From assembly GCA_038059415.1 (NCBI GenBank), contig JBBTJN010000179.1, forward strand, positions 1 to 54,153: a stretch of 54,153 bases of DNA. The letters are read 5' to 3'. Numbering within the stretch: the stretch's first letter is position 1; every line of letters starts with the position of its first letter. Shown here in pieces: positions 18,295-48,775 of this stretch. This DNA is from Elusimicrobiota bacterium. Lineage in GTDB: Bacteria; Elusimicrobiota; Elusimicrobia; UBA1565; UBA9628. The translations under genes were made by a program, and so were the position numbers. The notes beneath the pieces are model-generated. The model was given only the letters and a program-made list of their open reading frames with translations, did no database searches and was not told the DNA's origin.

Positions 18295-18295
18295 C

Positions 18296-30892: not shown

Positions 30893-30949
30893 GACCAGGA
30901 TGTTAAATGAATGTTTCCAACTCCATCGGGCGTTTGCCGCGGAAGTCGG

Positions 30950-31966
30950 TCAACCCCAGGCGGCGACGAGGTCAATGAGCGCGGTTCCGATCTTCTGCGC
31001 AGGCAGGATGTGATCGACGACGCCGGCGCTGATAGCTTCCTTGGCCATGCCGAAAATTATGCTCGAGGCCTCATCCTGCGCGTAGGTGGCGCCCCCAAGT
31101 TCCTTGATCTTCCTCATCCCCGCCACTCCGTCCTCTCCCATTCCGGTCAGCAGGACGCCGATGCAGCGCTTGCCGAAGACCTGCGCGGCATCCGCCATGG
31201 CGAGGTCAATCCAGGGCTGGATGTGATGGGGCGACACGCGGCTGACGAGCTGGATCTTGCCGCCACCCTGATGGGCCGCGAGTTTGACGCTGATCCCGCC
31301 GGGCGTCAGGTACGCCGTGCCCGCCCGCAGCGCGACCCCGTTCTCGACCTGCTCGACCGGGATTCTCGTGGAGTTCCTCATGCCGTTTGCGACCAGGTCG
31401 GTAAACTCCGCGGAAAGGTGCTGAACGATGAGCACGGCCGCGGGGAAGTCCGGAGGGATCTCCGCAAGAACGCGCTTGACGGCCTTGGGCCCGCCGGTCG
31501 AAGCGCCGATGACGACCAGCGCGTCCGCCACGCGCTTGCCGCGCTTCTGGAGTCTGCGTTCGAGCATGGTCGCCGTCGTGACCGATGCGATTTCGCGCAG
31601 CTTGGCGAGATATGAGGACGGAAATCGCGCCCACTCCTTGCCGCCGGGTTCCGGTTTGCGCAGGTGATCCAAGGCGCCGCGCCCCATCGCCGCGGCCGCA
31701 ATCGAGCTCTCCAGGGGTTTGTCGCCGCTCATCATCAAAACGGGCAAGGGGTCGTACTTCATCATGGCGTCGAGTATCTGCAGCGCGTTCATGTCCGGCA
31801 AAATCGCGTCGAGGCTGATCGCATCGGGGAGCGTGCCGCGCATGAGACTTAAGCCTTCGCGTCCGGTCGAAGCGATGCCCAGCAGTTCCATGCCGGGATC
31901 GCCGGCGACGATATCCCCCAGCATGGGTCGGCCTCCCTCGACGACCAAGACCCGAATGCGCTTCAA
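30950..31966 (-). CDS. cheB: Chemotaxis methylesterase CheB (REC + methylesterase)
   Basis: IGASTGGP, VQH and LTGMGEDG (Ser-His-Asp triad intact), QDEASSIIFGM; the REC acidic pocket is degenerate (VEGG). Confidence 0.9.
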   Translation of the reverse strand: MKRIRVLVVEGGRPMLGDIVAGDPGMELLGIASTGREGLSLMRGTLPDAISLDAILPDMNALQILDAMMKYDPLPVLMMSGDKPLESSIAAAAMGRGALDHLRKPEPGGKEWARFPSSYLAKLREIASVTTATMLERRLQKRGKRVADALVVIGASTGGPKAVKRVLAEIPPDFPAAVLIVQHLSAEFTDLVANGMRNSTRIPVEQVENGVALRAGTAYLTPGGISVKLAAHQGGGKIQLVSRVSPHHIQPWIDLAMADAAQVFGKRCIGVLLTGMGEDGVAGMRKIKELGGATYAQDEASSIIFGMAKEAISAGVVDHILPAQKIGTALIDLVAAWG

Positions 31967-31999
31967 CGCATCACCCTTCGATTGTTTTGCCGATCCCGA

Positions 32000-32809
32000 T
32001 CAGCCGATTTTTTCATACACGTTATGCGCGACGTCGAACGGCGCGAACAAGTTTTCAGCCGTCAGGCTCTCGATGCCGCCCAGGATTAAGAAGCCTCCGC
32101 GAGATAAAGTCCTATGAAAAAAACCCATGATGCTGTCGCGGCCCGAGGCGGACATGTAGATCAGGACGTTGCGGCAGACGATCAAGTCGGCGATCGGCAG
32201 CTCTTTCATCGAGGTGAGATCGTGTTTGGAGAACCGCACGGCATCTCGCGCCGTGGATCGAATCATAACCGCACCCTCGATCCTCTCGAAATAACGGCCG
32301 TAGGGCTCGGGAACCGCGGCCGCCGCCTCGCCGGCATAAACCGCTTTGCGCGCGAATTCGATGGACTGAGCGTTGATGTCGGTCGCCTGCACGGAATATT
32401 TAAGATCGGGGTTATGGCCGCGTATGAAATTATGGAGGATCATCGAAAGGGTATAGGCTTCTTCGCCGGTGGCGCAACCGGCGCTCCAGACCCGGAGTTC
32501 CCCCGTGTGGCCGCGTCTGAGGAGCATCTCGGGAAGCACGCGCTTTTCCAGGGACTCATAGACGCCTAGATCGCGGAAGAACTCCGTGACGTTGATCGAC
32601 AGCACCCTCAGCAGTTCCTCCCGTTCTTCGGGATGCCTCTTCAATATGACGACGTAGTCCATATAGCCGGCAATATGCCAGCGCTCGAGCCGCCGGGCCA
32701 GGCGCCGTTCGAGAAATTCCCGGCCATAGGGAGACAAATCCATCCCATATCTCAGCTGAAGGAGATTCTTGAGTTTATCGAAATCGTCTCGGATGGGAAG
32801 ATCGGCCAT
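32000..32809 (-). CDS. cheR: Chemotaxis methyltransferase CheR
   Basis: INVTEFFRD, WSAGCATGEEAY, ATDI, CRNVLIY. Confidence 0.95.
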   Translation of the reverse strand: MADLPIRDDFDKLKNLLQLRYGMDLSPYGREFLERRLARRLERWHIAGYMDYVVILKRHPEEREELLRVLSINVTEFFRDLGVYESLEKRVLPEMLLRRGHTGELRVWSAGCATGEEAYTLSMILHNFIRGHNPDLKYSVQATDINAQSIEFARKAVYAGEAAAAVPEPYGRYFERIEGAVMIRSTARDAVRFSKHDLTSMKELPIADLIVCRNVLIYMSASGRDSIMGFFHRTLSRGGFLILGGIESLTAENLFAPFDVAHNVYEKIG

Positions 32810-32815
32810 GCGCGC

Positions 32816-32959
32816 TCAGACGAGCATCAGGCGAACGGCAGGCCGTAGGTCCTGAAAAATAAACAGCGTTTCACACTGCGCGTCCAGGCTTGCGCAGGAG
32901 AATACAGCGTGCGCGGTCGACATCAGCTCCGAGTGATCCACGATTAAGGCGGTCTTCAT
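32816..32959 (-). pseudogene. 47-aa internally deleted remnant of a REC-CheC paralog
   Basis: MKTALIVDHS resembles the start (MKTALVVDNS) and FSCASLDAQCETLFIF resembles the end (YSCESLGIVCETIFML) of ORF 33891..35645. GGAG RBS present. Confidence 0.65.
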
Positions 32960-33029
32960 ATGTCTCCCGTTCGGATCGGACGACGACTGGGCGGGCGAAA
33001 GGACGCGACGGCGACGCCGCGCGCGAGGA

Positions 33030-33446
33030 CTACGTCCCGGGAATCTTCGGCGCGAGGGTCGCCGTGATCTTAGCCAGCAACCTGGCCGCATCCACGGGCT
33101 TTACGATATAGCCGGCGGCCCCGTAGCCGAAGGCCTTCTCCACGTCCTTGCCTGTCTGCGAGCCCGTGACCATGATAACCGGGAGCGGAGCGGTCTTGGG
33201 GTTGCTTTTCAAGCGTGCCAGAGTTTCAATCCCGTCCATTCCCGGCATCATCATGTCCAACAAGATCATCTTCGGCATATGAGCCTCAGCCAACTTAAGG
33301 GCGTCGAGACCGTTGGACGCCTCCAGCATCTCATAGCCCGCGGGTTCCAGGATCATCTTGATGCTCATGATGATCAGCCCGGAGTCGTCAACGACCAAAA
33401 TCAACGGTTTACCGCTTCTGGCCGGTTTCGAGGAAAAAAAGCCCAT
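33030..33446 (-). CDS. Single-domain response regulator with MGFFS N-terminus
   Basis: AGGAGG RBS, ATG 33446; ILVVDD, LLDMMMP, VT, VKP. Confidence 0.9.
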   Translation of the reverse strand: MGFFSSKPARSGKPLILVVDDSGLIIMSIKMILEPAGYEMLEASNGLDALKLAEAHMPKMILLDMMMPGMDGIETLARLKSNPKTAPLPVIMVTGSQTGKDVEKAFGYGAAGYIVKPVDAARLLAKITATLAPKIPGT

Positions 33447-33475
33447 GCCTAAAACCTCCTTGTCGCACGCGCTCC

Positions 33476-33916
33476 TTAGGCGTCGGACTTGCGGCGGGTG
33501 GTGTCGTTTCTCATGATTCGCCCGATCGCGTCTTTGAGCTTGCCCCATTCGGCCGGCTTCGACACATACTCGCAAGTCCCCATGTGAGCATACTGATCCC
33601 GAACGAGCTTCTGATCGACGGCGCTGACGATAATGAACCGCGCGTCGGCGTCAAAATCCACGATGCTTCTAATCGCCTCGAGCCCGGAGCTTTCGGGCAT
33701 GTTCATATCCATCGTCGTGATGTCGGGGTGCGTTTCCTTGTACAGGGCGAGGGATTCCGCGGCGTTCTTAGCCTCGCCCACCACCGTGTGACCGTTGGAC
33801 TCCAGCATGTCCTTTAAGAACATCCGAGTAATGAGGGAGTCATCCGTGATCAACACCCGGCAGGCCCGCGCCTTCTCTTTGCAACCACCTTCATGAGCGT
33901 CCATTTCCCCTCCCAA
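33476..33916 (-). CDS. cheY: CheY-like response regulator
   Basis: LITDDSLITRMFLK, TMDMNMP, VSA, SKP; Thermotoga/Bacillus-type CheY pattern. Confidence 0.8.
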   Translation of the reverse strand: MGGEMDAHEGGCKEKARACRVLITDDSLITRMFLKDMLESNGHTVVGEAKNAAESLALYKETHPDITTMDMNMPESSGLEAIRSIVDFDADARFIIVSAVDQKLVRDQYAHMGTCEYVSKPAEWGKLKDAIGRIMRNDTTRRKSDA

Positions 33917-35645
33917 TTAACTTATCCAGGCTGTCCACGTGCAACATGAATATCGTTTCGCAGACGATGCCCAAACTTTCGCATGAATATTTATTTTTCG
34001 CCAGAACCCCTTGATCCAGGGAACTGAAAATTTGACCGGAGGCCTGCTTGATGATATCCGGCACGGACTTAGCCAGGAATTCGGGAGGCGTGCTGAGAAT
34101 GGCGCTCCCCATGGTGTCTGCGAAAACGTTGAGCAAGTTGGTGATCATGATGTTCCCCCATTCCATCGTCGCCAGCTTGATCACTTCCTTGTCCGGGATC
34201 GACGTCAAGTGTTTGTTGACCAGAAGGGCGGACATGCGCTCGGCGCTTTGTTGAGGGACAAGAAAGAGGCACACGATGGGGGTATCGCCGGACACCGTCA
34301 TCTGAATGGACACCGACTCCCAGTCTTTGGAGTCGAACAAGGATGCCAGCTTCAAGTCGGAGCCCTGATAAAGCTCGACGGACGATAAAACCCACGTCGA
34401 ATTGCACATGACATTGAGAGCTTCGATGCAGCGCTGCGCTCCATCCCGCAGCAATTTCTTGAGATTCTCGGCTTCCTCCCGGCTGATGGAGAAAGTATTT
34501 TTTTCGACCGGACCGACCTCGAGCTCAAGGGCGAGGGCGGCCTTCAGAGCGTCTCCGGTCAAGGGCTTATGCAGGACGGAGAGGGCCCCTAAAGTGAGCA
34601 ACTCCGCCTTGACCTTCTCCTGGGAAACCGATGTCACCATGATCACCCGGGCCTGCGGATTGGTCAATTTAATGCTCCGGAGCACATCCATGCCCGAGCC
34701 CCCGGGCATCACGAGGTCAACGGTCACGAGGTCCGGGCGCAGATCGTGGTACGCCTTAATGCCCTCCGGGACGTCGCAGGCCTCGCCGACCACGTCAAAA
34801 CCGTGCTCTTCGAGCAATCCCCGAATAATGGCGCGCATTACGACGGAATCATCCACCACGAGAGCCCGCTTCTTGACGACGCCCTGCGTGAATTTGGATT
34901 CCTCATCGAGAGCGTGCGCCAGTTCATTGATGGTCAATGGCTTATGTATGACGGCCAGGGCGCCGAGGCCCATCAGATCTTCCCTAATTTTTTCCTGGGA
35001 AACGGACGTCACCATGATCACCCGAGCCTCGGGGTTGATCCATTTGATGCGTTTGAGCACGTCCATGCCGGAACCGCCGGGCATCACGACATCGACGGTG
35101 ACCACGTCAGGGCGAAGCACCTCATACGCCTCGATGCCCGTCTTGACGTCGTCCGCCTCCCCGATCACCGCTACACCGTACTCCTCCAGCACCTCGCGCA
35201 CCATGGCGCGCATCACCGCGGAATCATCCACGATGAGAGCCCGCAGTTTCCCGGCGACAGACGCGGCCTCTTTGGACGCGGACGGATTGGAGGCGATGCA
35301 CGCAAGCGCCTCCTTCAAACCGTCGCTCGTCAACGGCTTGCGCAGGACCGCCGACGCGCCCAACGCCATGGCCCCATGCTGCGAATTGTCCGATCCGATG
35401 TCGGAGACGATGATGACGCGAGCGCCGTCATGTCTCTCATGAATATTTTTCAGGACCAGGAGGCCGGAGCCTCCCGGCATGATGATGTCGAGGGTGACGA
35501 GATCAGGCTTGTAGGCTTGGTAGGCGTCGATTGCTTCCTGAACGTCGCCGGCTTCGGCGATCGTCTCGATGTCATTCTCGCGCAGAATTTCCTTGATGTA
35601 GGTCCGCACAAAACGGGAGTTGTCGACGACTAGGGCAGTTTTCAT
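33891..35645 (-). CDS. Triple CheY-like REC domains fused to a CheC-like phosphatase domain
   Basis: Three copies of ALxVD(N/D)S...T(L/V)D.xMPGGSG...KPLT, then a CheC-like tail with MEWGNI (ExxN) and STPP. Confidence 0.85.
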   Translation of the reverse strand: MKTALVVDNSRFVRTYIKEILRENDIETIAEAGDVQEAIDAYQAYKPDLVTLDIIMPGGSGLLVLKNIHERHDGARVIIVSDIGSDNSQHGAMALGASAVLRKPLTSDGLKEALACIASNPSASKEAASVAGKLRALIVDDSAVMRAMVREVLEEYGVAVIGEADDVKTGIEAYEVLRPDVVTVDVVMPGGSGMDVLKRIKWINPEARVIMVTSVSQEKIREDLMGLGALAVIHKPLTINELAHALDEESKFTQGVVKKRALVVDDSVVMRAIIRGLLEEHGFDVVGEACDVPEGIKAYHDLRPDLVTVDLVMPGGSGMDVLRSIKLTNPQARVIMVTSVSQEKVKAELLTLGALSVLHKPLTGDALKAALALELEVGPVEKNTFSISREEAENLKKLLRDGAQRCIEALNVMCNSTWVLSSVELYQGSDLKLASLFDSKDWESVSIQMTVSGDTPIVCLFLVPQQSAERMSALLVNKHLTSIPDKEVIKLATMEWGNIMITNLLNVFADTMGSAILSTPPEFLAKSVPDIIKQASGQIFSSLDQGVLAKNKYSCESLGIVCETIFMLHVDSLDKLIGRGNGRS

Positions 35646-35699
35646 TAATTTACCGAGTGTAACAGGGCTCCATGTAATTGTCCAGGTCCGCGCAAACGC

Positions 35700-36080
35700 T
35701 CATGCCGGCTTTTGCGGCGCGCGAAATGCCTGGGCAATCGCCGCCTCAAGGGCCGGCCAACCTCCCGACTTGGTCGCGTAGGCCTTGGCGCCGGAAGCGG
35801 AGATTCGATCAGCGGCTCGGCCGTCAATCAAGGCGCTCACGGCGATCATGCGCGCGTCGGGATCCAGTTTCAGCACCTCTCGTATGGTGTCGATGCCGTT
35901 TTCACCGTCGAGCATGAGGTCTACGGTAACCAAATCGGGCTTCGTCATCCTGTAAAATTCCACGGCTTCGCGGGTGCCTTCAGCTTCACCGATCACGGTG
36001 TGGCCATGATCTTCCAGCATCTTCTTCAGCAATTTTCGCGCGTAGGGGGCATTATCAACGACCAGAATTGTATATGACAT
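35700..36080 (-). CDS. cheY: CheY-like response regulator
   Basis: ILVVDN, VTVDLML, VSA, K. Confidence 0.8.
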   Translation of the reverse strand: MSYTILVVDNAPYARKLLKKMLEDHGHTVIGEAEGTREAVEFYRMTKPDLVTVDLMLDGENGIDTIREVLKLDPDARMIAVSALIDGRAADRISASGAKAYATKSGGWPALEAAIAQAFRAPQKPA

Positions 36081-36083: not shown

Positions 36084-36281
36084 TTAGAATAGCTTATTTC
36101 CCGGTATGAGACCCATCGCGGGCCCCGGCCTCCGGGGATCGAACTGATAAGGCGTGCCGACCGAGCCGTGGCACTGGGCGCAATGGCGCGCGTAAACGTC
36201 CTGCCCTCGGACGGAAGCATGGGCGGACGCCGGAACAAAAAGCGCCGCCGAGGAAAAGACGAGCGTCGCGAGGCTAATCAT
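36084..36281 (-). CDS. Short or truncated exported c-type cytochrome-like protein
   Basis: Signal peptide ending AHA, then GQDVYARHCAQCHG (class I cytochrome c G..vY...CxxCHG); start overlaps the cheB stop. Confidence 0.65.
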   Translation of the reverse strand: MISLATLVFSSAALFVPASAHASVRGQDVYARHCAQCHGSVGTPYQFDPRRPGPAMGLIPGNKLF

Positions 36282-37356
36282 CGCCGTTTCCGACGCCGCC
36301 GCTGACGCCGAACTGCGCCAACGCCGGAGAAAATTCCTCGGGCTTGCAGACTCGAGTCGCGACTCCCGCTTTCAAACACGCCTCCGGCATCGAAGGTGCC
36401 GCGGCCGTGCGCGGATCCTGCACCCATACCTCCCCCCCCTTGTCCCGGATGGCGCGCGCACCCTCCACGCCGCCCTCTCCCATGCCGGACAAGACGATGC
36501 CGACGGCTTTGCGCCCAAAACACTCCGCCACGGATTTTAAAAATGCATCGTGGTTCGGCTGAAGCGGAATCTGCCACTCGGTGAAGGTCTTGACCTTCTC
36601 CAGCCGGGATATCCGCCCGCACGAAGTCTTTTGAAGAAGAAGCGTTTTATCCGTGGGCGATAAAAGAATGACCCCCTCCCGCACGACCTCGCCGCCCTGC
36701 GCCAACTTGACGGGGAGCAGGACCTTGCTCGCCAGGGAAGCGACGAAATGAGTCCACACCGGCCCATACATATGCTGCGCGACCAAGACGCCGGCCGGAA
36801 GGTTGGGAGGCAATTTCAGCAGAATATCCCTGAGAATCTCGACGGCGCCGGTGGAGGAAATGATCCCGACGCCCCTGCGCGCCGCCCAAGCTTTCTCGCG
36901 TCCGAGAACATGCTTGCGCGTTTCAAGATAATCGATTATCAGCTTATCTGAAGAGGTGCCCGCGGCCCGGGTGATGAGTTCCCTCAGCGATTGCGCAATC
37001 ACTTGCATTTCGGGAAGCGTCCGGGGCTTGACTAAAACCATAAGGGCGCCGTGCTCGTAACACTCCAGAAAAATCTCGCTGTCGGAGGGACAATACACCG
37101 AGGAAAACATTATGACCGGCACGGGCGCCTGCCTCATGATCTCGTCGAGAAGAGCGACCCCGTCCTGCGGGGGCAGGAACAGATCAAGCAGCAGCACGTC
37201 CGGCCTGTCGTTGCGGATGGCCGGCAGGACGGAGGCTCCGTCGAGGATCTGCCCCGTGATCCGCACGCCCATGGCGGGCGTGAAAACCTGCGGGATCCAC
37301 GCCTGGAACGAAGCGGAAGAATCCGCGACGAGCATCTTGTACGCGGGGCTCGTCAT
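36274..37356 (-). CDS. cheB: CheB-like protein, atypical active site
   Basis: REC domain plus ISSTGA, AQHM, LSGMGEGG (catalytic Asp position is Gly) and QDP..A..PSMP. Confidence 0.85.
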   Translation of the reverse strand: MTSPAYKMLVADSSASFQAWIPQVFTPAMGVRITGQILDGASVLPAIRNDRPDVLLLDLFLPPQDGVALLDEIMRQAPVPVIMFSSVYCPSDSEIFLECYEHGALMVLVKPRTLPEMQVIAQSLRELITRAAGTSSDKLIIDYLETRKHVLGREKAWAARRGVGIISSTGAVEILRDILLKLPPNLPAGVLVAQHMYGPVWTHFVASLASKVLLPVKLAQGGEVVREGVILLSPTDKTLLLQKTSCGRISRLEKVKTFTEWQIPLQPNHDAFLKSVAECFGRKAVGIVLSGMGEGGVEGARAIRDKGGEVWVQDPRTAAAPSMPEACLKAGVATRVCKPEEFSPALAQFGVSGGVGNGDD

Positions 37357-38180
37357 GCGCCTATTTTCTTGAAAATGCTCGACTGGCCGGACAGCGTCTC
37401 GAATAAGCCCTGGTTATTCTCCCCAATAAGCACCTCGCTCGCCCCTAAAACGAATATCCCTCCGGGAACCAAGGCCGCGTGGAAGTTGCGCAGCGCCTCC
37501 GCCTTGGCCTCCTTCGTTAAATATATCAGGGAGTTGCGGCAGGAGATAAAGTCCACGTGCCGGCCCATCAACGGGGTCAAATAGCTGTGCTCGACGAATT
37601 GGACCATGCTCGTGACCGCCGGAGAAACTTGGACATATCCATCCTTCTTTGAAAAATATACTTTCGTGCGATGCTCGGAGACCTTGGCGATGGAAGCCTC
37701 CGGGTAACGCGCGGTTTTGGCGCGGGCCAATGAAACCGGATCCACGTCGCTGGCGATGATCTTGACCTCGGGTTTCTTCCTGATAAGCCGCAACAGCTCA
37801 AGGATGATGATGGCGATGGTGTACGGCTCTTCACCGCCCGCGCAGCCCGCGGACCATATGCGGACCGGCTCTCCGGCCCTCGACAACAACGGCTCGAATA
37901 CGTTGGCGGCCAGATACTCCCAAACGGCGACGTCCCGAAAAAACTCGGTGACGTTGATCGTCAACCTGTCGAAGAGATCATCGAGCTCCTCCGGCCTCTT
38001 CTTGATGATCGCTTCGTACTTGGCGATATCGCCATCCATGATATTGACGGCGATCAATCGATTTTCAACGTGTCTTCGGATAAACGTGCGGCGATAATCG
38101 TGGAAATTCAGTCCGCGCCTGACCCGCAGCCTCTCGATGAGGCTGTCAAGCGCGGCATCCGAAAGTCCCGGGGAGCCCAC
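37353..38180 (-). CDS. cheR: Chemotaxis methyltransferase CheR
   Basis: INVTEFFRD, WSAGCAGGEEPY, ASDVD, CRNSLIY. Confidence 0.95.
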   Translation of the reverse strand: MGSPGLSDAALDSLIERLRVRRGLNFHDYRRTFIRRHVENRLIAVNIMDGDIAKYEAIIKKRPEELDDLFDRLTINVTEFFRDVAVWEYLAANVFEPLLSRAGEPVRIWSAGCAGGEEPYTIAIIILELLRLIRKKPEVKIIASDVDPVSLARAKTARYPEASIAKVSEHRTKVYFSKKDGYVQVSPAVTSMVQFVEHSYLTPLMGRHVDFISCRNSLIYLTKEAKAEALRNFHAALVPGGIFVLGASEVLIGENNQGLFETLSGQSSIFKKIGA

Positions 38181-38182: not shown

Positions 38183-39754
38183 CTATTTCGCGCGCAGCTT
38201 AAAGTTCTGCACGATGCCGTTAAGCGTGTCCGACATGGACTGAAGCTCCATGCTCGCCGTGTACGTCTTGTTGGCGTCTTCCGTGAAGCCCTGGCTCAAA
38301 TTCGACACCATCTCGACGCTCGCCGAGATCTCCTCGGTCGTCGCCGAGTGCTCCTCGGCCGCCGCCGCGATCTGCGAGACCATGTCCGTCACCTGGCCGA
38401 CCATCACCACGATGCGCCGCAGCGACTCGCCGGCGCGGCTGGAGAGCTCGACGCCGCGCGTCACCTCTTTGCCGCCCTCCTCCATCGAAAGGACCACGCC
38501 CTTGGTGTCCTGCTGGATCGTGCCGATCATGTCGGCGATCTCCTTGGTCGCCTGCGTCGTGCGCTCGGCCAGCTTGCGCACCTCGTCGGCCACGACGGCA
38601 AAGCCCCGTCCCTGATCGCCCGCGCGCGCCGCCTCGATGGCCGCGTTGAGCGCCAGCAGGTTGGTCTGGTCGGCGATGTCCTCGATGACCTTGATGATCG
38701 CCCCGATCTGATCGGAGGACTTGCCCAGCGCGTGCACGACCGACGTCGAAGCCGCCACCGCCTTCGAGATGATCTGCATGCCGTGAACGGTCTGCTCCAC
38801 GACCTCGCCGCCGCCCTTGGCCTCCGCGGCCGCCTGCTTGGCCGCCTCGGCCGCGCGCTGGGAGTTGCGCGCCACTTCCGCCACGGTCCTATTGAGCTCG
38901 CCCAGGGCCTTGGAGACCTGACCGGTTTGATTGGACTGCTTGGACGCCGAATCCTTCATCCTCGTGGCCGATTCGCCCATCCCTTTGGCCGATTTCGTCA
39001 AAATACCCGTCGTGTCCAGCAGGCGTTGGATGATGTCGTTGAGCCGCGCCGTAAACGCGTTGAAGCACTTCGCCAGCAGCCCCAACTCGTCGCCGCGATC
39101 GACTTCCAATGTCTGGGTCAGATTCCCCTCGCCGATATCGTTGCCGAAGGTGATGAGGGACTTGATTTGATTCACCGTCGAGGTCGTGAATGAATACGTG
39201 GGCAGAATGATCACGAGGAAAACCACGACGGCCGCGATGACGGAGATCAGGATGCCTCGGTTCAGCGCCTTGTTCGTCTGCGTGTCGAAAATCTCGATCA
39301 ACTCCGCGGCGCTTTTCTGGAGGTTTTCCCCCGCCAGGTGATAGTTGTCGATATAGCTGTTGCCGACCACCCGGTCGTATTTGATGTAAGCTTCCGCCGT
39401 TTCCGCGCCTTTAGTCTGGAAGTCGTTGAACAGCTTCTCGAGTTCGACGATGCGGCCCAGCGTGGCCGCGTCGTTCTTGTAGGCGACGCGCAAGGCGTCC
39501 AGGGTCGCCTTGGCGCCGTCGGCGGACTTGGTGATTCTGTCCTTGGATTCCGCCTTCCAAGTCAACGCGTAATCGGTGGACCAGATAACGAGGTCGTTGA
39601 CGAACTCGCGCATCTGTATCATTTTACGAGAGTCGCTCACGGAGGCCTTGACGTTGCTGGACGTGTAAGTGTTGTAACCTAGAACGGTGACGACGATCGC
39701 GATAATGATGCCGGCTCCCAACATGATCTTTCCGATCAGCATGCGCTCTTTCAT
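38183..39754 (-). CDS. Methyl-accepting chemotaxis protein (TM, helical sensor, TM, HAMP, MA), copy 1
   Basis: [11 protein letters not shown] (HAMP); [40 protein letters not shown]. Confidence 0.95.
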
Positions 39755-39965: not shown

Positions 39966-40718
39966 TTATTCCTTGATGGTGAAGCTCAGCGCCGCGCCGG
40001 GCGCCCCGTCCTTGAAGCCATCCTTCAGACCGCCCGAGATGTCGCGCTCGCCCTTCGGCTCGCCATGACATTTCAGGCACCCGGCCTCTTCCGTGTAGTA
40101 CTCGGGTTTTATGTAGCGCAGAGTCCCGTCGACCACCTCGGAAATGGCTTTCCCCTTCGGGTAGCCCGGGTCCATGAACTTCTCGATGCTCTTCCTTTCC
40201 CACGAGTCGGGCGCATTCTTCACGTTGCGCACGATGAGCGCGGTGGTCTTGCCCGTGATACCGCTGCCCTGCTGGTTGAATATCTCAAAGGCTTTGCGGG
40301 CAAAAAGCGCCGGCAGGAACCCCTTGAAACCCATGCCTTTTTTGTTGATTAAGCCCTGGGCGTCGGTGAGGACCGTCCGCTGAGCCTCCAGCAGGCTCTC
40401 CATGCTCTTGCCGCTCAACCCCCCTTTCTTGATCTCCTTGTTCAGATCGATTTTCTCCTCCAACAACATCGCCTTGAGCGTTGCGGTAAACGAGTCCGCC
40501 GTGAAGCCCTTGGCCTCTTTCGTAGGGTCATTGATCAATGTCTGGTTAGAGGAAACGATCTTGCGGCCCAAGCTCGCCACGCGTTCGACCTTTTTCACCA
40601 CTTCAAGCTTATTGTCAGCTCCCTTGTCAGCTCCCTTCTGAGCGCGAAGACCCTCGACGCCCGACAGACTGATCGCCAGGACCAGCAGTCCCGTCCGCCA
40701 TTGAACCAACTTTTTCAT
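39966..40718 (-). CDS. Exported DUF3365 / Tll0287-like c-heme protein
   Basis: Signal peptide; KGFLPALFAR, RNVKNAPDSWE, LRYIKP, CLKCHGEP, G.K.G...GALSF match the Tll0287-like pattern with CxxCH. Confidence 0.8.
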   Translation of the reverse strand: MKKLVQWRTGLLVLAISLSGVEGLRAQKGADKGADNKLEVVKKVERVASLGRKIVSSNQTLINDPTKEAKGFTADSFTATLKAMLLEEKIDLNKEIKKGGLSGKSMESLLEAQRTVLTDAQGLINKKGMGFKGFLPALFARKAFEIFNQQGSGITGKTTALIVRNVKNAPDSWERKSIEKFMDPGYPKGKAISEVVDGTLRYIKPEYYTEEAGCLKCHGEPKGERDISGGLKDGFKDGAPGAALSFTIKE

Positions 40719-40733: not shown

Positions 40734-42311
40734 TTATGCCGATTCTCGCAGCTTAAAGTTCTGCACGATGCCGTTAAGCTTGTCCGACATGGACTGAAGC
40801 TCCATGCTCGCCGTGTACGTCTTGTTGGCGTCTTCCGTGAAGCCCTGGCTCAAATTCGACACCATCTCGACGCTCGCCGAGATCTCCTCGGTCGTCGCCG
40901 AGTGCTCCTCGGCCGCCGCCGCGATCTGCGAGACCATGTCCGTCACCTGGCCGACCATCACCACGATGCGCCGCAGCGACTCGCCGGCGCGGCTGGAGAG
41001 CTCGACGCCGCGCGTCACCTCTTTGCCGCCCTCCTCCATCGAAAGGACCACGCCCTTGGTGTCCTGCTGGATCGTGCCGATCATGTCGGCGATCTCCTTG
41101 GTCGCCTGCGTCGTGCGCTCGGCCAGCTTGCGCACCTCGTCGGCCACGACGGCAAAGCCCCGTCCCTGATCGCCCGCGCGCGCCGCCTCGATGGCCGCGT
41201 TGAGCGCCAGCAGGTTGGTCTGGTCGGCGATGTCCTCGATGACCTTGATGATCGCCCCGATCTGATCGGAGGACTTGCCCAGCGCGTGCACGACCGACGT
41301 CGAAGCCGCCACCGCCTTCGAGATGATCTGCATGCCGTGAACGGTCTGCTCCACGACCTCGCCGCCGCCCTTGGCCTCCGCGGCCGCCTGCTTGGCCGCC
41401 TCGGCCGCGCGCTGGGAGTTGCGCGCCACTTCCGCCACGGTCCTATTGAGCTCGCCCAGGGCCTTGGAGACCTGACCGGTTTGATTGGACTGCTTGGACG
41501 CCGAATCCTTCATCCTCGTGGCCGATTCGCCCATCCCTTTGGCCGATTTCGTCAAAATACCCGTCGTGTCCAGCAGGCGTTGGATGATGTCGTTGAGCCG
41601 CGCCGTAAACGCGTTGAAGCACTTCGCCAGCAGCCCCAACTCGTCGCCGCGATCGACTTCCAATGTCTGGGTCAGATTCCCCTCGCCGATATCGTTGCCG
41701 AAGGTGATGAGGGACTTGATTTGATTCACCGTCGAGGTCGTGAATGAATACGTGGGCAGAATGATCACGAGGAAAACCACGACGGCCGCGATGACGGAGA
41801 TCAGGATGCCTCGGTTCAGCGCCTTGTTCGTCTGCGTGTCGAAAATCTCGATCAACTCCGCGGCGCTTTTCTGGAGGTTTTCCCCCGCCAGGTGATAGTT
41901 GTCGATATAGCTGTTGCCGACCACCCGGTCGTATTTGATGTAAGCTTCCGCCGTTTCCGCGCCTTTAGTCTGGAAGTCGTTGAACAGCTTCTCGAGTTCG
42001 ACGATGCGGCCCAGCGTGGCCGCGTCGTTCTTGTAGGCGACGCGCAAGGCGTCCAGGGTCGCCTTGGCGCCGTCGGCGGACTTGGTGATTCTGTCCTTGG
42101 ATTCCGCCTTCCAAGTCAACGCGTAATCGGTGGACCAGATAACGAGGTCGTTGACGAACTCGCGCATCTGTATCATTTTACGAGAGTCGCTCACGGAGGC
42201 CTTGACGTTGCTGGACGTGTAAGTGTTGTAACCTAGAACGGTGACGACGATCGCGATAATGATGCCGGCTCCCAACATGATCTTTCCCATCAACATTCGA
42301 TTCGTACCCAT
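40734..42311 (-). CDS. Methyl-accepting chemotaxis protein, copy 2
   Basis: Same motifs as copy 1; ATG 42311 has an upstream GGGGAG. Confidence 0.95.
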
Positions 42312-42331
42312 AAATTTCTCCCCAGCCGTCT

Positions 42332-43399
42332 TTACATGACTTCCCGACGCCTCGTCTGCTTCCACTTGATCCAAAGCTCTCCCGTCTCCGTGAGCAATTC
42401 CACGGATCTTGCCTGCGATCCCCCCAAGTCCTCGCCGGAGAGACGGACTCCGTTGCGCTTAAGCTCCACGCGCAGCACCTCGGCGTTTCTCGCGCCGATG
42501 GTGCCGCTCAAAATAGATCCCTGCGGCATGATCATATCCGCGCCGCCCACCAGCCATGAGGAAACCTTCGTCTTGGAACGCATCGTTTTCAGCAACGCCG
42601 TCACCGCCGTATCGGCATACTTGCCGGGTCTTGCGATGCCCGAATCCTCGGAGGGGCACTTCGGCAACAGCACATGAGCCATCCCCCCCTTCTTTTGATG
42701 AGCATCATACATCGCGACGACGACGCATGACCCTAAATCCGTCGCCTTCAGGACCATCGGGGCGCTGACCGTCTCCAACGCCCCGATACCAACCGAAACC
42801 GTCATCGCTTTTCCCCGAAGCGCCCACAAGCGGACATTCTCCAAAGAGTCGGGAGATAGCGCGAGAATAAATTGGCCGAATTTCGGCACAAGTTCCCACG
42901 AAAAATCGACGAACATGACGACCCCGCTGCCGGAAACGCCTTGAGCCAGCATCAGCTTGCTCCACGACGTTAGCCACGGCCCCTGCTCGATCCTGGGAAC
43001 CGACGGGTATATCTCCATTCGCAGCGCCTTGCTCAACTCCGCCATCACTCCGTTGACTAAGATGTTCCCGGCCTCTTCCATGGCGGAGCCCATGAAATCC
43101 TTTAAGTTTCCAGGGGGCGGGATGCCGAGCTGCTTGAGGACCCGATCCATGAATTTTTCCGCGTTGGGAACCGAAAAGCTCAGCGCCGCCGTCCCGTAAA
43201 GATCGCCCTGCATCGACATAAACACGCTGTAAACGTTCTGTTCCGACGTGAACAACCCGATCGGCGGTTGGTTGAACGGAACGCGCAGCATCCCCCAAGT
43301 TTCCGGAGACACATGGCCGTTGAGCATGTTTCCCAGCCCGCGCGCGCCCTCCAGCGCCGCCTTCCCCAATGCCGACCGCACCCGATCTTCCTCGAGCAC
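42332..43399 (-). CDS. CheC-like / CheD fusion protein
   Basis: N-terminal CheC-like domain ([10 protein letters not shown]...LS..L...I.PSVP). C-terminal CheD ([30 protein letters not shown]). Start uncertain (GTG 43399 or ATG ~43450-43462). Confidence 0.85.
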
Positions 43400-43427
43400 A
43401 CCCCAAGACGAGTGTTCCGAGGATAAG

Positions 43428-45263
43428 CTACTCAAAAAATACCCGCGCATCGGTGCCGTCATAAAGCGGCGGGCGTAAAACGTCTTGCCTCGTCCGCGCC
43501 GGCGCCGCAATCGGAGTCGACGAGAACTCCGGGATGACTTCAGCCTTATCTCCATGCTGAACCAACGCGTTCAGGTCGACCGCGCGATCGTTGAGCCGGA
43601 AATACCGATGACTCCTCTCGGTCGGAGTCAACACATCACGCAGCCGGGTCCCCTCTATCGTCAAGCGCATCCGGTCGGACAGAGGCTCGGTGCAATCGAC
43701 CAAACGGCCGTTGGAAACAACCCGGACCGCGATGTCTCGGAGATGCCCGTTGACGGCCAGCATGCGACGAACGTTCCCGAGGGCATCCCCGACGGTGCCC
43801 GCCGCCTCCTCATGCTCGCAAGCCGCGACAAAACTGATCCGATCTCCCGCCGCGATCGGGGTATTGGAATCAACCGGCATCCCATTGAGCTCGACGCGGG
43901 CCGGAGAGACCGCTCGCGCCTGGAAAATACGGAACTCCCCATTCACCGTATATGTCTTGGAGACCCCCGGCCAACCGAATATTTTCTTTGCCGCAATCCC
44001 CGAAGCCATCAAAGCCGAGAGCACGGTCATCGGACGGCCGATGTCCAGCAGAAAAAACCGTTTGTCGTTGATGAATATCTTCTTAAAACAAACGCCCCCC
44101 TCAACGGACGCCACCTCGGCGATGCCCAGAGGAGTGGCCGTTTCCGGTCCCAAGGACCCGCCATGCATGTCTTTAAACGTGCGCATTCCTTCCGGGGAAC
44201 GAATCCCTACTCGTTGAAGTGGAATCTCAAGGGCTTGCGCCAGCATCTCCAGCAAGCCCGGGGTCCGACTCCCGCCGCCGACGCAGAGGACCCCTTGGGG
44301 AGCTTTCCCGCCGCTGAGCTCCAGAATGCCGCCCGCAATCCTCGAGGCAAGCTCCGCCACGGCGGGAGCGATGGCGCCTCGCACTTCCTGGCTGGTCAAC
44401 CGCAACGGCTGCTGAAAAATGTCCGCCGCCTTGATGACTCCCCCGCCGCTGATCTCGCGCTTCATCTTTTCCGCTTCGTTGAACTCCAACAGGAATTGGC
44501 CGCAAATCCTTTCCGTGATCGAATCCCCGGCGTAAGGCACCATGGCGAAGGCGCAGACCGCGCCCTCGGACACCAATGCGATGTCGGAAGTCCCGGCTCC
44601 GATATCGACAAGAGCCAAATCCAAGCGGCGCAAATCCGGGCTGATCGTCGCCTGAAGGGCGGCGATAGGCTCAAGCGTCACCGAGGCGACCTCAAGACCC
44701 GCCGACTCCAGCACGTCGATCTGGCTCTCCAACACCTGCCGCGGCAAAAATGTCGCGAGGACTTCGACTTCAAGACGATCTCCCTGATGACCGACGGGTT
44801 GGGCGATCGCGATGCCTTCCAGGAGATACCGCCGGACCACGTAGCCGACGCAGGAATGCTGAATTTTTGACTGATCGTTGGCGGTCTTCCGCCCCAGCCG
44901 GCGCAACGCCGATTCCAGAGCGTCGAAAGTCAACTGCTCCACGTCCCCGGTCTCCAAGACCCGATCCTTGGGACAATTCATGGCCGCATTTCCCACGACC
45001 GTCTTCAGATTTCTTCCCGCCACGGCGACCGCCACATCCCGCAGTTCCAGGCCGCTGCGCTCGGACAGGGCCCGTACCACCTGCCGAACGACCTGCGTCA
45101 CTTTCGGCACGTCCTGAATCTGGCCGGCGCTCATCGCTCGGGTGGGATGCTCCTGGGTCTCGCTCTCTAGAATCTCCAGCATGTCTCCCCGCCGCTCGGC
45201 AACGACCCCCATCACTTTACGCGTACCGATGTCGAGCGCGAAAATCGTGCGTGATTGCATCAC
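43428..45263 (-). CDS. FtsA/PilM-family actin-like ATPase with C-terminal ThiS/ubiquitin-like repeats
   Basis: ALDIGTRKV, LEPIAA, VDIGAGTSD, AEKMK, VGGGS. The tail has repeated (V/L)NG...D.xxP...GD.I motifs. Start overlaps the cheA stop. Confidence 0.85.
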   Translation of the reverse strand: MMQSRTIFALDIGTRKVMGVVAERRGDMLEILESETQEHPTRAMSAGQIQDVPKVTQVVRQVVRALSERSGLELRDVAVAVAGRNLKTVVGNAAMNCPKDRVLETGDVEQLTFDALESALRRLGRKTANDQSKIQHSCVGYVVRRYLLEGIAIAQPVGHQGDRLEVEVLATFLPRQVLESQIDVLESAGLEVASVTLEPIAALQATISPDLRRLDLALVDIGAGTSDIALVSEGAVCAFAMVPYAGDSITERICGQFLLEFNEAEKMKREISGGGVIKAADIFQQPLRLTSQEVRGAIAPAVAELASRIAGGILELSGGKAPQGVLCVGGGSRTPGLLEMLAQALEIPLQRVGIRSPEGMRTFKDMHGGSLGPETATPLGIAEVASVEGGVCFKKIFINDKRFFLLDIGRPMTVLSALMASGIAAKKIFGWPGVSKTYTVNGEFRIFQARAVSPARVELNGMPVDSNTPIAAGDRISFVAACEHEEAAGTVGDALGNVRRMLAVNGHLRDIAVRVVSNGRLVDCTEPLSDRMRLTIEGTRLRDVLTPTERSHRYFRLNDRAVDLNALVQHGDKAEVIPEFSSTPIAAPARTRQDVLRPPLYDGTDARVFFE

Positions 45264-46978
45264 AGGAAACCCTCCTGAATGTCGACTATCATGATGGCCC
45301 TGCCGTCACCAAGGATGGTCGCGCCCCCGATGCCGTTGATCGTTTTTAGAAACCCGGTCAAGTTCTTCAAAACGATCTCCTGGCGGCCCACCAACTGGTC
45401 CACCACGAGCGCGAACCGCGCGGTCCGGGACTGCACCACCAGGGCGTATCCCATCGCGTTCGACGGAATATTAAAAAACTTATTCAGGCGCACGAGCGGC
45501 AGGACCTCGCTGCGCAGGGCGATCACCTCTTGTTTATCGATGATCTTGGGCTTGACGATCCCCAAGGAAACGATCTCCAGGACATCGGCCAAGGGAAGAG
45601 CGAAGGTCTGCTCTCCCACCTGGAACAAAAGCGCCTGAATGATGGCCAGATTTAAAGGTAAAAACAACGAAAACCGGGACCCTTGCCCCAGCACGGAATG
45701 GATATCGAGATGTCCATTGATCGATTCGACCGACTCCTGCACCGCGTCCATGCCCACGCCTCGGCCGGAAAATTGGGAGACCATCTCCTTGGTGCTCAAG
45801 CTGGGATGACAGACGAGATACAGAGCCTCTTCATCGCTCATCTTGAGCGCTTTCTCCGCGGAGATCGCGCCCAGCCTCACCGCTTTTTCCTTCACGCGCG
45901 CAACGTCGATGCCTCCGCCGTCGTCGATGACGTCCACCACGGCGTAATTCTTTTCCCGCCGGGCGACCAGGGAAACCGTCCCGACCGTGGATTTCCCGGA
46001 AGACTTGCGCTTCTCCTTAGACTCGATGCCGTGGTCGATGGCGTTGCGCAGCAGGTGGACGACCGCCTCGTTGATTTTCTCCAGAAGCACGCGATCGACG
46101 GAGATGCCGTTATCTTGAATGACGAAGGATATTTCCTTGCGCAAATCGTGCGCGATATCCCGGACGACCCGCTGATAGCGTTCGAAGATGTCGTCGACGG
46201 GTACCATGCGCGTCTTCAGGACCTCTTCCTGCAGCTGAGTGCTGAGCCGCTCTAAAAATTTTACTTCGGAGATGAGCCCCGGCACGCCCAGTTCCCGGCT
46301 ATGTTGGATGAGGCGGCTTTTCGTGATGGCCAACTCCCCCACCAGATTCATGATGTCATCTAGGTGCTTAAGCTGTACGCGCACAACCGTGTTGCGTATG
46401 GCGTTCTTCGCGTTTTTGCGAGCCTCTTTCTTTTCGGCATCCTCCTCCAACATCTCGGACGGGACCGCAGGTTCCAGCGTCGCGACGGGCGCAACCGCGA
46501 CCGGGGCGGGGGCGACCGGGGCGGGGGCGACCGGGGCGGGGGCGACCGGGGCGGGAGCGACCGGGGCGGGAGCGACCGCCTGCCCCTGCGGCGGCGCGCC
46601 GACGCTCAGCGCCCTCTGCAAGTTATCTATGGAAGTCTGAATGTCGACTCCCTTATCCTGACCGGATTGGAACTCCAGCAAGAGGGCATGGAAAATGTCC
46701 AGAGAGGCCAGCATCACGTCGAGCGCCGACGTGCTCATATTGAGCGCGCCGTCTTTGATTCGTTCCATGCCATCTTCAAGATGATGGGCGTACTCCGCCA
46801 TTTTCGAGCATCCCATCGTGGCGGCGTTGCCCTTGATCGTATGCATCACCTGAAAGATGGTTCGAAGGCTGCCCTCATCCTGGGGCTCTTTCTCGATCGC
46901 CAACAGGGCCTGCTCAAGCCGCTCGAGCAGCTCCTCGCTCTCGCTGACGAAAATCGCGTTCAGTTTTGATAAATCCAT
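45260..46978 (-). CDS. cheA: Chemotaxis histidine kinase CheA (no P2 domain)
   Basis: HPt MHTIKG; VRV....LD.IMNLVGEL; HLLRNAIDHGIE; DDGGGID; SGRGVGMD; C-terminal CheW domain GATILGDG. Confidence 0.95.
   Translation of the reverse strand: MDLSKLNAIFVSESEELLERLEQALLAIEKEPQDEGSLRTIFQVMHTIKGNAATMGCSKMAEYAHHLEDGMERIKDGALNMSTSALDVMLASLDIFHALLLEFQSGQDKGVDIQTSIDNLQRALSVGAPPQGQAVAPAPVAPAPVAPAPVAPAPVAPAPVAVAPVATLEPAVPSEMLEEDAEKKEARKNAKNAIRNTVVRVQLKHLDDIMNLVGELAITKSRLIQHSRELGVPGLISEVKFLERLSTQLQEEVLKTRMVPVDDIFERYQRVVRDIAHDLRKEISFVIQDNGISVDRVLLEKINEAVVHLLRNAIDHGIESKEKRKSSGKSTVGTVSLVARREKNYAVVDVIDDGGGIDVARVKEKAVRLGAISAEKALKMSDEEALYLVCHPSLSTKEMVSQFSGRGVGMDAVQESVESINGHLDIHSVLGQGSRFSLFLPLNLAIIQALLFQVGEQTFALPLADVLEIVSLGIVKPKIIDKQEVIALRSEVLPLVRLNKFFNIPSNAMGYALVVQSRTARFALVVDQLVGRQEIVLKNLTGFLKTINGIGGATILGDGRAIMIVDIQEGFL
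46497..46578. repeat. 15-bp tandem repeat, about 5.5 copies (PVAPA) in the CheA linker
   Basis: GCGACCGGGGCGGG(G/A) units. Confidence 0.9.
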
Positions 46979-47007: not shown

Positions 47008-47520
47008 TCACTTTTTATCCCATGCGGTGCTTTCCAGAATCAACTTCTCCATGTTCTTAAGCATCTTGTCCAGGTTAAGAAGCAGGATCAGCCGGTTGGG
47101 AAGTTTAGCCACGCCCAGAATATAATCCACGTCCACCTTGGGCAAATTAGCCGGAACGCCTTCTATGATGGCTGGAGCGATCCGCAAGACGCCGGTCACC
47201 GAATCCACGGTGAACCCCACCATCTGCGTTTCGATATGCGCCACGATGATCCTCGCTTTTGTCGAGTCCGTCACGCCTTCAATGGCAAAACGTTCTTTGA
47301 GGTCGATGATCGGGACTATTTTTCCGCGAAGGTTGCAAATCCCTTTGACGAACGGGGGCATGTTCGGAACCACCGTAATGGTGGTCGCCCGCACGATTTC
47401 CTGCACCTGCGTGGCCGATACCGCGTATTCCTCTTCGCCAAGGCCGAAGAGGACCCACTGGATTCCATCGCCTTTGCCATCGCCGTCTTTCTCTTTCGCT
47501 GAAAAATTTACTTCTTGCAT
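47008..47520 (-). CDS. cheW: Chemotaxis adaptor CheW
   Basis: F.LG.EEYA, VQEI, VP..PPFVKGICNLRGKIVPIIDL, GFTVDSV. Confidence 0.95.
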   Translation of the reverse strand: MQEVNFSAKEKDGDGKGDGIQWVLFGLGEEEYAVSATQVQEIVRATTITVVPNMPPFVKGICNLRGKIVPIIDLKERFAIEGVTDSTKARIIVAHIETQMVGFTVDSVTGVLRIAPAIIEGVPANLPKVDVDYILGVAKLPNRLILLLNLDKMLKNMEKLILESTAWDKK

Positions 47521-47565
47521 CACAGTTGCCCTCCAACGGCGCTCAACGACAATCCATCGCCCTCT

Positions 47566-48624
47566 TCAATTGGGTCGGGGGGATTGCTTTTTATTTTTAG
47601 CCGGCAATTTCACCAAAACGCAGCCCCCGGCGCCGGGCGTGATCGAAATCTCGATGTCTCCACCATGCGCGCGCGCGATTTTTTGCGCCCAACTCAACCC
47701 GATCCCGCGCTTGTTCTTCTTCATGGTGAAAAACGGTTCAAAAGCCTGTTCGGCAATGTATTCTTCCATACCTTCCCCGCTGTCCTGGAAGAGAATATAG
47801 GTCCATTGCCGCTGGATATCGCCGTAAGCTCCCACGGTCAGGGTGCCCCCTGCGGGCATGGCCTCGACGGCGTTGGTTAAAACGGCGTCAATGACACGCT
47901 TAAAAAGCGCGGGATCACACTCCGTGGGAGGAATCGAACCGGTGTCGATTTGCCAAAGCACCTTGGTCGCCGGAGTCGTCGAGATGGGGTGACTCGCCAC
48001 CACGCTGTTGAGCCACGAATTGACTTGAATGTCTTCCAGCTTCAGCTCGATGGGACTAAGCAGTTCGACGTACTCCTCGATGAAGCTCATGCTGCTTTCC
48101 ACGGACCGCTGAGCAAGCGCGATGAATTTAGCCCGGAAGTCTTCATCCGTCTTTTTTGCAAAGACCGGGAAGATCTGCAAAACGCTTCCGACGCTGTTGC
48201 GCAAATGATGCAACAGGACCATCGGGGAATCCCAGGATGCGATTTTGGAGTCGTCTTTCCTGGTCGATGAGCCATCATCCTGCAGGAGCGCCTGCACTTT
48301 GGCGCGCAGCACGGTCTGGGTAAAAGGCTTGAATAAAAAACCTTGAGCCAATCCATGCACCCAAGGGCTGTAGGCGTCGGAAGCGCTCATGATTAAGATG
48401 GGGAAAGTATGCCCGTTTTCCCTGAGTTGCTGGCACACCTGGTAGCCGGATATGTCCGGAAGTTGAACGTCCAGCAAAACGACGTCCGGCTTCTCTTTTT
48501 CCGAGACGGCGTAGGCGCTCTCGCCGTTTTGAACGGTTAGGACCGTATGCCCGGCCGGTTCCAAATATTCTTTTGTGGCGCTGCAGATAAACTGGGAGTC
48601 GTCCACGACCAATATTTTGGCCAT
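47566..48624 (-). CDS. Hybrid REC + histidine kinase (cytoplasmic, no sensor domain)
   Basis: ILVVDD...LLDVQLP...KP; H-box-like LHHLRNS; NAVEAM, DSGEGM, FEPFFT, GIGL, HGG. Confidence 0.85.
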   Translation of the reverse strand: MAKILVVDDSQFICSATKEYLEPAGHTVLTVQNGESAYAVSEKEKPDVVLLDVQLPDISGYQVCQQLRENGHTFPILIMSASDAYSPWVHGLAQGFLFKPFTQTVLRAKVQALLQDDGSSTRKDDSKIASWDSPMVLLHHLRNSVGSVLQIFPVFAKKTDEDFRAKFIALAQRSVESSMSFIEEYVELLSPIELKLEDIQVNSWLNSVVASHPISTTPATKVLWQIDTGSIPPTECDPALFKRVIDAVLTNAVEAMPAGGTLTVGAYGDIQRQWTYILFQDSGEGMEEYIAEQAFEPFFTMKKNKRGIGLSWAQKIARAHGGDIEISITPGAGGCVLVKLPAKNKKQSPRPN

Positions 48625-48775
48625 TACCTGTGCATCCAACGACCCCAACAGAAGTTAATCTTCATGAAATAAAACCGCCCTGATTGATCGGCCAATGGTA
48701 ATATACATACCAGTGCCTGTCAAGTGCGTATTTCGGACCGATGATTGCTCCCTCCATTTTGGATAGACTCGTCGC

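Follow-up and report, generated by a model that had tools for sequence, protein, structure and literature searches.

We analysed a 54,153-nt stretch of DNA from an Elusimicrobiota bacterium (positions 1 to 54,153 of contig JBBTJN010000179.1; hereafter, the window) and focused on a gene for an FtsA-like protein that lies inside a chemotaxis (che) gene cluster. This gene, its product and their relatives are here named FtsAL. FtsAL belongs to a long same-strand array that runs from a receiver-HATPase hybrid through cheW, cheA, FtsAL and a CheC/CheX-like and CheD fusion to two methyl-accepting chemotaxis proteins (MCPs), CheR and CheB (Table 1). The series cheW, cheA, ftsA-like and cheC/D, with the cheA stop overlapping the ftsA-like start, had been described in an initial annotation of the locus, and the open reading frames (ORFs), Pfam matches and junction sequence bore this out. 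The ORFs were picked by length and by GC content at third codon positions, and small genes were possibly missed; within this limit, none of the 35 window proteins scanned with Pfam belonged to the FtsZ, FtsQ or PilN/O/P families, in line with the same annotation.

The cheA/FtsAL junction reads GTGATG, and the TGA stop of cheA occupies positions 45262-45260. Two candidate starts were present for FtsAL, GTG 45263 (4-nt overlap with cheA) and ATG 45260 (1-nt overlap), with AGGAGGG at 45276-45270 lying 7-10 nt upstream of them. At the other end of the gene, ATG 43462, to which homologues point as the most likely start of the cheC/D fusion, sits 35 nt before the FtsAL TAG (43428-43430) and thus inside the FtsAL gene; relatives showed FtsAL/cheC-D overlaps of 38 nt (L004) and 35 nt (L092). 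The fusion protein carries the motif S-x3-E-x2-N-x22-P, presumably the consensus of the CheC part, as well as the CheD residues GSCV/AH (alignment A3).

The FtsAL protein begins with an actin-fold domain of the FtsA type. Pfam matched it to FtsA (6.9e-14), PilM_2, MreB and ThiS (2e-5), while the NCBIfam scores for FtsA (TIGR01174, 136 bits; cut-off 175.85) and PilM (TIGR01175, 65.7 bits; cut-off 133) both fell below the cut-off, and a Protein Atlas search returned only generic 'FtsA family' cluster names. The full-length AlphaFold model (predicted local distance difference test, pLDDT, 83.5; predicted template modelling score, pTM, 0.71) was searched with Foldseek, and the results showed E. 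coli FtsA (7q6d) as the closest structure, with a template modelling (TM) score of 0.84 on the target over ~400 columns, compared to 0.75 for the best PilM and 0.65 for the best MreB. In a profile search against the Protein Data Bank (PDB), FtsAL residues 4-371 aligned to FtsA residues 8-375, the 1C (SHS2) subdomain, which FtsA-type proteins have instead of 1B, included. Three motifs, D10-I-G-T-R14, D219xGAGTxD226 and G328GGS331, which we take to be the phosphate-1, phosphate-2 and adenosine motifs, respectively, were invariant in 20 aligned family members (alignment A1), and it is therefore very likely that FtsAL retains nucleotide binding.

Past residue 385, the protein consists of beta-grasp domains, a disordered linker (pLDDT <50 for residues 579-599) and a terminal strand remnant ending in ...ARVFFE, and no C-terminal amphipathic membrane-targeting helix was found in the sequence or the models. 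A tail-only AlphaFold model of 226 residues (pLDDT 87.6) matched linear polyubiquitin, ISG15, bacterial multi-ubiquitin proteins and ThiS (3cwi) in Foldseek. For model residues 3-100, VIA-align returned SAMP1 (4hro, Z 7.6), BubA (9eav, 7.4), TGS (2eki, 7.3) and ThiS (3cwi, 6.7), with MoaD also matched (SAMP1/ThiS/MoaD Z 6.6-7.6); for residues 112-200 it returned the Raf Ras-binding domain (3ny5, Z 6.3), ThiS-like 2cu3 (5.7) and Ubl 7mrj (5.7). Z values at this level are ordinary for small domains, and the beta-grasp fold is supported by the consistency of the match list together with the Pfam ThiS match. These results agree with the initial annotation, which had read ThiS/MoaD-like repeats in the C-terminal ~200 residues in place of the FtsA helix. 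The models suggest two complete beta-grasp domains of ~90 residues each, a count that is model-dependent. With two 'NG' hairpins apiece, these domains account for the greater number of NG...GD.I motifs noted in the tail by the initial annotation.

The tail of the window protein is shortened. Compared to its closest relative (P0002, 76% identity; BLASTP and alignment A1), ~62 residues of the last beta-grasp domain are gone and only its final 13 are retained, in frame, and this last domain carries the most conserved tail motif of the family (A1). The 610-aa form was recovered as two distinct sequences from independent assemblies, and the deletion was therefore taken as real rather than as an assembly error. 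Most family proteins are 700-730 aa long, and further short members of 597-649 aa were found (L028, L061, L052 and L041).

FtsAL is a non-divisome paralogue of FtsA. We compared the source genome of the window (G000, 77% complete) with 60 other Elusimicrobiota genomes, and all 60 encoded a canonical FtsA above the TIGR01174 cut-off (189-390 bits), mostly in open frames of ~410-450 aa. The long form was present only in G000, G007 and G054 among the Elusimicrobiota sampled, and G007 and G054 carry both the long form and canonical FtsA. No FtsA above the cut-off was found in G000, a result that is uninformative because its ftsZ is truncated where contig C135 begins and because of the 77% completeness; the canonical ftsA of G000, expected upstream of ftsZ, was probably lost in an assembly gap. 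On C135, a PilT-family gene (C135:596-1621) comes after the ftsZ fragment (C135:3-425, L084). A maximum-likelihood tree of 88 rows (quick search, LG+G4, root set by an outgroup of 5 canonical FtsA) split FtsAL from the 5 canonical proteins with 100% support in the Shimodaira-Hasegawa-like approximate likelihood ratio test (SH-aLRT). The possibility that FtsAL is the division FtsA itself was thus ruled out by its score, by the coexisting canonical FtsA in relatives and by its separate branch. A further FtsA-like paralogue of ~380-465 aa was observed in eleven Elusimicrobiota genomes (G027, G030, G033, G036, G039, G044, G046, G048, G050, G052 and G058); its match to the FtsA model, with 87-109 bits, is confined to the first 250-280 positions, and it differs from canonical FtsA, from PilM and from the long form.

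The family is large, with at least 589 relatives (589 of the 600 first pattern matches in the genome collection encode one). Metagenome relatives were found by a scan with the family alignment, a single-protein query having given none, and the best 80 genome loci and 80 metagenome loci among those fetched (L numbers) were compared. CheA lies upstream on the same strand, directly or nearly so, in 5 of the 80 genome loci, namely in an Elusimicrobia genome (L004), an unclassified bacterium (L005), an Omnitrophota genome (L029) and Methanolobus (L064, L071). The two other Elusimicrobiota carriers (L085, L086) likewise have FtsAL inside che operons with CheA upstream. Among the metagenome loci, CheA was upstream in 2/80 (L092, with a 4-nt overlap, and L095) and within 3.4 kb in 2 more; in L099, CheA and then CheC precede FtsAL, with one unrelated glycosyl-hydrolase gene between, and a divergent che cluster accompanies FtsAL in L134, together with a PilZ gene. 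CheR adjoins FtsAL in 3/80 genome loci (L014, L027 and L065) and in metagenome loci L115 and L141. In every che-linked locus a CheC-family gene adjoins FtsAL (in L099 at a distance of one gene). No other neighbour is as constant, and the CheC-family protein is the leading candidate for a partner. The che linkage is thus not peculiar to this genome, a point on which the initial annotation had made its reading depend, and the protein is not the canonical FtsA, the other such point.

In the same tree, the 74 rows from Bacillota and Thermotogota formed one clade (support 99), and the 8 che-linked rows fell outside it together with L025, whose upstream DNA is missing. Copies in Bacillota and Thermotogota stand outside che operons; the CheR-adjacent Bacillota loci L014, L027 and L065 formed a clade of their own (support 97). 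We claim no ancestral state, che-linked or standalone, because the position of the root depends on the outgroup and branching near the base was not resolved.

Second-messenger or motility regulators recur near family members. In L134, a PilZ gene (L134:6318-6956) extends over the FtsAL start, a ComFB gene lies directly downstream in L029 (L029:7973-8236), and HD-GYP-type and GGDEF genes are neighbours at L017:6018-7514, L017:12117-13808 and L027:8679-9815. Three che-linked loci have a gene for a small sensor protein (GAF-PAS or receiver-PAS) that separates cheA from FtsAL (L085:10073-10927, L095:5979-6833 and L086:10996-11748). A PilB-like gene was considered as a conserved neighbour and rejected: besides the window, it occurs near FtsAL only in L097 and L146, two non-che metagenome loci, among the fetched loci, and the match in L084 belongs to the own-genome contig that lacks FtsAL.

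Co-occurrence with CheA was scored in 201 genomes of a Bacillales-level order and in 250 Clostridia-class genomes. In Bacillales, FtsAL was present in 122/187 CheA-positive and 0/14 CheA-negative genomes (Fisher P = 9.8e-7); in Clostridia, it was present in 53/91 CheA-positive and 0/159 CheA-negative genomes (P = 8e-30). Both P values overstate the association, because related genomes are not independent and kinship was ignored. Across the two samples, with the same reservation, 175 of 175 carriers have CheA and none of the 173 CheA-less genomes carries FtsAL. CheA was also found in 44/46 genomes behind the fetched loci, and the two without it were small metagenome-assembled genomes (MAGs).

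All 53 Clostridia carriers also have FlhA and CheD, while 3 genomes with CheA and no FlhA, 1 with FlhA and no CheA, and 6 with CheA and no CheD all lacked FtsAL. A partial separation of chemotaxis from motility came from hosts without FlhA, a protein that was not found in 6/6 bacterial genomes with che-linked FtsAL (G000, G007, G054 and the genomes of L004, L005 and L029), of which G007 and G054 are 96-98% complete. In 5/5 searched genomes with che-linked FtsAL, 3-8 PilT-family genes each scored above the cut-off, and the CheA linked to FtsAL was the sole CheA in 4/5. In the window genome, the lack of any flagellar export gene among the genes found makes type IV pili the probable target of the che system; this genome also has a separate PilM-like gene (L002). 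Motility machines differ among the hosts of the family: flagella in Bacillota (and Thermotogota), presumed archaella in Methanolobus, and pili alone in Elusimicrobiota hosts without FlhA. This indicates that the family follows the Che core rather than one particular motor.

We modelled FtsAL together with the CheC-CheD fusion. The interaction prediction score from aligned errors (ipSAE) was 0.37, 0.38 and 0.26 (median 0.37), compared to 0.00 for the best of 3 controls; contacts agreed by at least 62% between runs, and partner pLDDT was at least 74. Of the solved complexes, 116 of 157 attain the ipSAE mark, as do 2 of 215 mismatches, and scores of 0.60 or below comprise only 18 of the 157 and both mismatches. 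The prediction hints weakly at binding between FtsAL and CheC-CheD.

Because the element shared across hosts is the chemosensory core and not a particular motor, we favour, with moderate confidence, the reading that FtsAL is an accessory of the chemosensory pathway acting at the Che core (CheA, CheC, CheD and the receptors) and not at the motor. The family is probably an overlooked part of chemotaxis signalling, large and, in the sampled genomes, present only where chemotaxis genes exist. FtsAL joins a nucleotide-binding actin-fold domain with its 1C subdomain to a tandem beta-grasp tail that replaces the membrane-targeting helix of FtsA. In the mechanism that we propose, the ATPase domain would self-associate in an FtsA-like, nucleotide-dependent manner, the tail would dock Che partners, and the whole would organise or regulate the signalling complex. 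More tentatively, FtsAL may be an ancient core accessory of the CheC/CheD-type system of Bacillota, Thermotogota, archaea and several candidate phyla; on this view it would polymerise in an ATP-dependent, actin-like manner, bind CheC/CheD or CheA through its poly-ubiquitin-like tail, and so provide chemosensory arrays with a nucleotide-controlled cytoskeletal element.

Several observations weigh against a role at the Che core. FtsAL is missing from 65/187 CheA-positive Bacillales and 38/91 CheA-positive Clostridia, and it is therefore dispensable for chemotaxis as such; in the Clostridia sample, where CheA, FlhA and CheD nearly coincide, a role in chemotaxis is not distinguishable from one in motility at large. 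Most family members lie outside che operons, with 72/80 of the best genome loci lacking an adjacent che gene and showing varied neighbours such as aroA and ytxJ/ytxH/ytxG in Bacilli, tagA and ctsR in Syntrophomonadaceae, and minCDE and rodA in one Thermosediminibacterales MAG. The window protein, without ~62 residues of the most conserved tail domain, may itself be impaired, the complex prediction is weak and came without a reported interface, and the passages matched in the literature searches held no experiment on any family member.

An alternative view is that FtsAL has no direct Che role and is a cytoskeletal or envelope-associated protein useful to motile cells, serving for example flagella placement or cell shape, which entered the che operons of one clade by gene-order drift. 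Its neighbourhoods often concern the envelope or division (minCDE/rodA, tagA and the murC region), and in Clostridia the co-occurrence with FlhA is as strict as that with CheA (53/53 carriers). We nevertheless consider this account unlikely: FlhA-less genomes keep FtsAL, with the sole CheA in the same che operon in 4/5 of those searched, the placement between cheA and cheC/cheD with overlapping stops and starts recurs across phyla and in an archaeon, and CheR adjoins FtsAL in a separate Bacillota clade (L014, L027 and L065). The possibility that the window gene is only a decaying copy, disabled by the in-frame loss of its last beta-grasp domain and kept through its operon position, is the least probable of those weighed here. 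The loss relative to P0002 and the conserved motif that went with it would fit decay, but the reading frame is intact, all nucleotide-binding motifs and the start/stop overlaps with both neighbours are kept, the 610-aa form is not confined to one assembly, and other short members exist.

FtsAL might alternatively be the output of the pathway, a CheY-P-like regulator or a CheC/FliM-like adaptor acting on it so that it works, as PilM does, on the type IV pilus or another envelope machine. In favour of this, CheC is homologous to the switch protein FliM, and PilM ranks second among the structural matches. In addition, FlhA is missing from the che-linked bacterial hosts, whose PilT genes are numerous, the same-strand array of the window ends in a PilB/MshE-type ATPase, and the FtsAL start is overlapped by a PilZ gene in L134. 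An adaptor would be expected to follow one machine, whereas the family occurs in hosts with three (flagellated Bacillota/Thermotogota, Methanolobus and the pilus-only Elusimicrobiota); in addition, the PilB-like neighbour is restricted to the window and two non-che metagenome loci, no pilN/O/P is adjacent, and the genome has its own PilM-like gene. An output role thus appears improbable, more so than the absence of a direct Che role. The initial annotation had suggested a scaffold or positioning factor for chemosensory arrays, or else the output of this pathway: its link to chemotaxis was strengthened by the linkage in several phyla and by the co-occurrence with CheA, while the output part was weakened because hosts use different motility machines and share the Che core.

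Table 1. Features of the window; domain rows refer to residues of FtsAL.
Feature	Coordinates	Strand	Product or part	Basis and remarks
Receiver-HATPase hybrid	47566-48648	-		ORF call and Pfam; first in listed array order
cheW	47008-47523	-		Pfam CheW 7e-37
cheA	45260-46978	-	572 aa; P1 (Hpt), P3 (dimerisation), P4 (HATPase), P5 (CheW); no P2	Pfam; NCBIfam CheA
FtsAL	43428-45263	-	611 aa (GTG 45263) or 610 aa (ATG 45260)	Stop TAG 43428-43430
Actin-fold ATPase domain with FtsA-type 1C subdomain	44109-45263	-	Residues 1-385	Alignment, model, Foldseek
Beta-grasp domain 1 (predicted)	43809-44102	-	~Residues 388-485	Tail model, VIA-align
Beta-grasp domain 2 (predicted)	43518-43775	-	~Residues 497-582	Tail model, VIA-align
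Disordered linker and 13-residue remnant of last beta-grasp domain	43431-43517	-	Remnant PLYDGTDARVFFE	BLASTP, alignment A1, pLDDT
CheC/CheX-like and CheD fusion	42332-43462	-	376 aa from ATG 43462	Pfam CheD 2.8e-18, CheX 0.0013; NCBIfam CheD
MCP	40734-42374	-	546 aa	Pfam
Tll0287-like (PF11845) gene	39966-40718	-		Pfam; CxxCH motif
Second MCP	38183-39754	-	523 aa	Pfam
CheR	37353-38180	-		Pfam
CheB	36274-37356	-		Pfam
Continuation of same-strand array, receiver genes onward	27555-36080	-		Pfam
Second CheR	32000-32809	-		Pfam
Second CheB	30950-31966	-		Pfam
PilB/MshE-type ATPase with MshEN domain	27555-29285	-		Pfam; far end of same-strand array

The remaining genes of the window showed several further features. 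In the window CheA, P2 is replaced by an (APAPV)n linker, the DNA of which is a tandem repeat with 5.5 copies of a 15-nt unit (46497-46578); P2 is also missing from the CheA of L005 and present in the CheA of L029 and L064. The two MCP products (523 and 546 aa) are almost identical and differ only at their ends, a 300-nt stretch flagged by the repeat finder is 100% identical, and the Tll0287-like gene lies between them. The continuation of the array at 27555-36080 includes at least seven receiver-domain genes, one of them encoding a product with three receiver domains, and a 242-aa gene of no assigned function; this receiver and PilB-type section may form a link between the che system and type IV pili. 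Elsewhere, a giant ORF of 2739 aa (3062-11281, minus strand) encodes a Peptidase_M50 fragment and ClpB-like AAA domains (AAA_2, ClpB_D2-small), and the region 13063-27519 holds a fatty-acid beta-oxidation cluster (enoyl-CoA hydratase, AMP-binding ligase, 3-hydroxyacyl-CoA dehydrogenase/hydratase fusion, thiolase and acyl-CoA dehydrogenase), within which two large ORFs (16795-18288 and 21831-24737) had no Pfam match.

Compared with known systems, FtsAL is closest to FtsA (TIGR01174, PF14450; PDB 7q6d, 7q6g, 1e4f and 4a2a), its best match in structure and sequence, with which it shares the actin fold with 1C over ~370 residues and the nucleotide-binding motifs. It differs from FtsA in its sub-threshold score, its beta-grasp tail in place of an amphipathic helix, its separate branch and its position beside cheA and cheC/cheD instead of ftsZ, the fragment of which lies on another contig. 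PilM (TIGR01175; PDB 2ych and 5eou) also has an FtsA-like fold and serves as a cytoplasmic adaptor in a motility machine, and the searched FtsAL hosts carry type IV pilus genes; PilM is nonetheless the weaker match in bit score and TM score, and FtsAL has no pilN/O/P/Q neighbours. ParC/ParP and PpfA are ParA-type ATPases that position chemosensory arrays; ParC and PpfA served the initial annotation as its analogy for array placement. Like FtsAL, they are ATPases encoded with che genes and stand outside the phosphorelay, but their fold, with a deviant Walker A, is unrelated to the actin-like fold of FtsAL. The tail, a succession of beta-grasp domains, has its highest-ranking fold matches among tandem ubiquitin-like proteins (linear polyubiquitin, ISG15 and the bacterial multi-ubiquitin proteins 9cd2 and 9d5a) and ThiS/MoaD/SAMP. 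In contrast to them, the FtsAL domains are internal, the protein ends in ...VFFE without a C-terminal Gly-Gly, and identity is only 8-28%. No E1-like (ThiF/MoeB) family, as would go with ThiS/MoaD/SAMP, was present among the window proteins scanned with Pfam, and no JAB or sulfur-transfer genes were found near FtsAL.

In the passages matched by full-text searches, no paper was found that describes che operons with an FtsA-like or actin-like protein, or proteins of the FtsAL architecture, and 'FtsA' occurs 0 times in the main text of two beta-grasp surveys and one archaeal taxis review (PMC7289035, PMC1949818 and PMC1779556). To our knowledge, FtsAL is apparently absent from model organisms, and if so, this would be the reason that the family was missed. 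Since carriers include culturable organisms (Bacillales, Thermotoga and Methanolobus), the question is open to direct experiment.

Few signalling systems have been studied as thoroughly as chemotaxis, and the list of its components is regarded as almost complete. The FtsAL family spans hundreds of species, was found only in chemotactic genomes in the samples searched, and occurs in che operons from bacteria to an archaeon. If FtsAL proves to be a Che component, it would be one of a new kind, an actin-fold ATPase with a poly-ubiquitin-like tail. FtsA-type proteins would then have been reused beyond cell division and pilus assembly.

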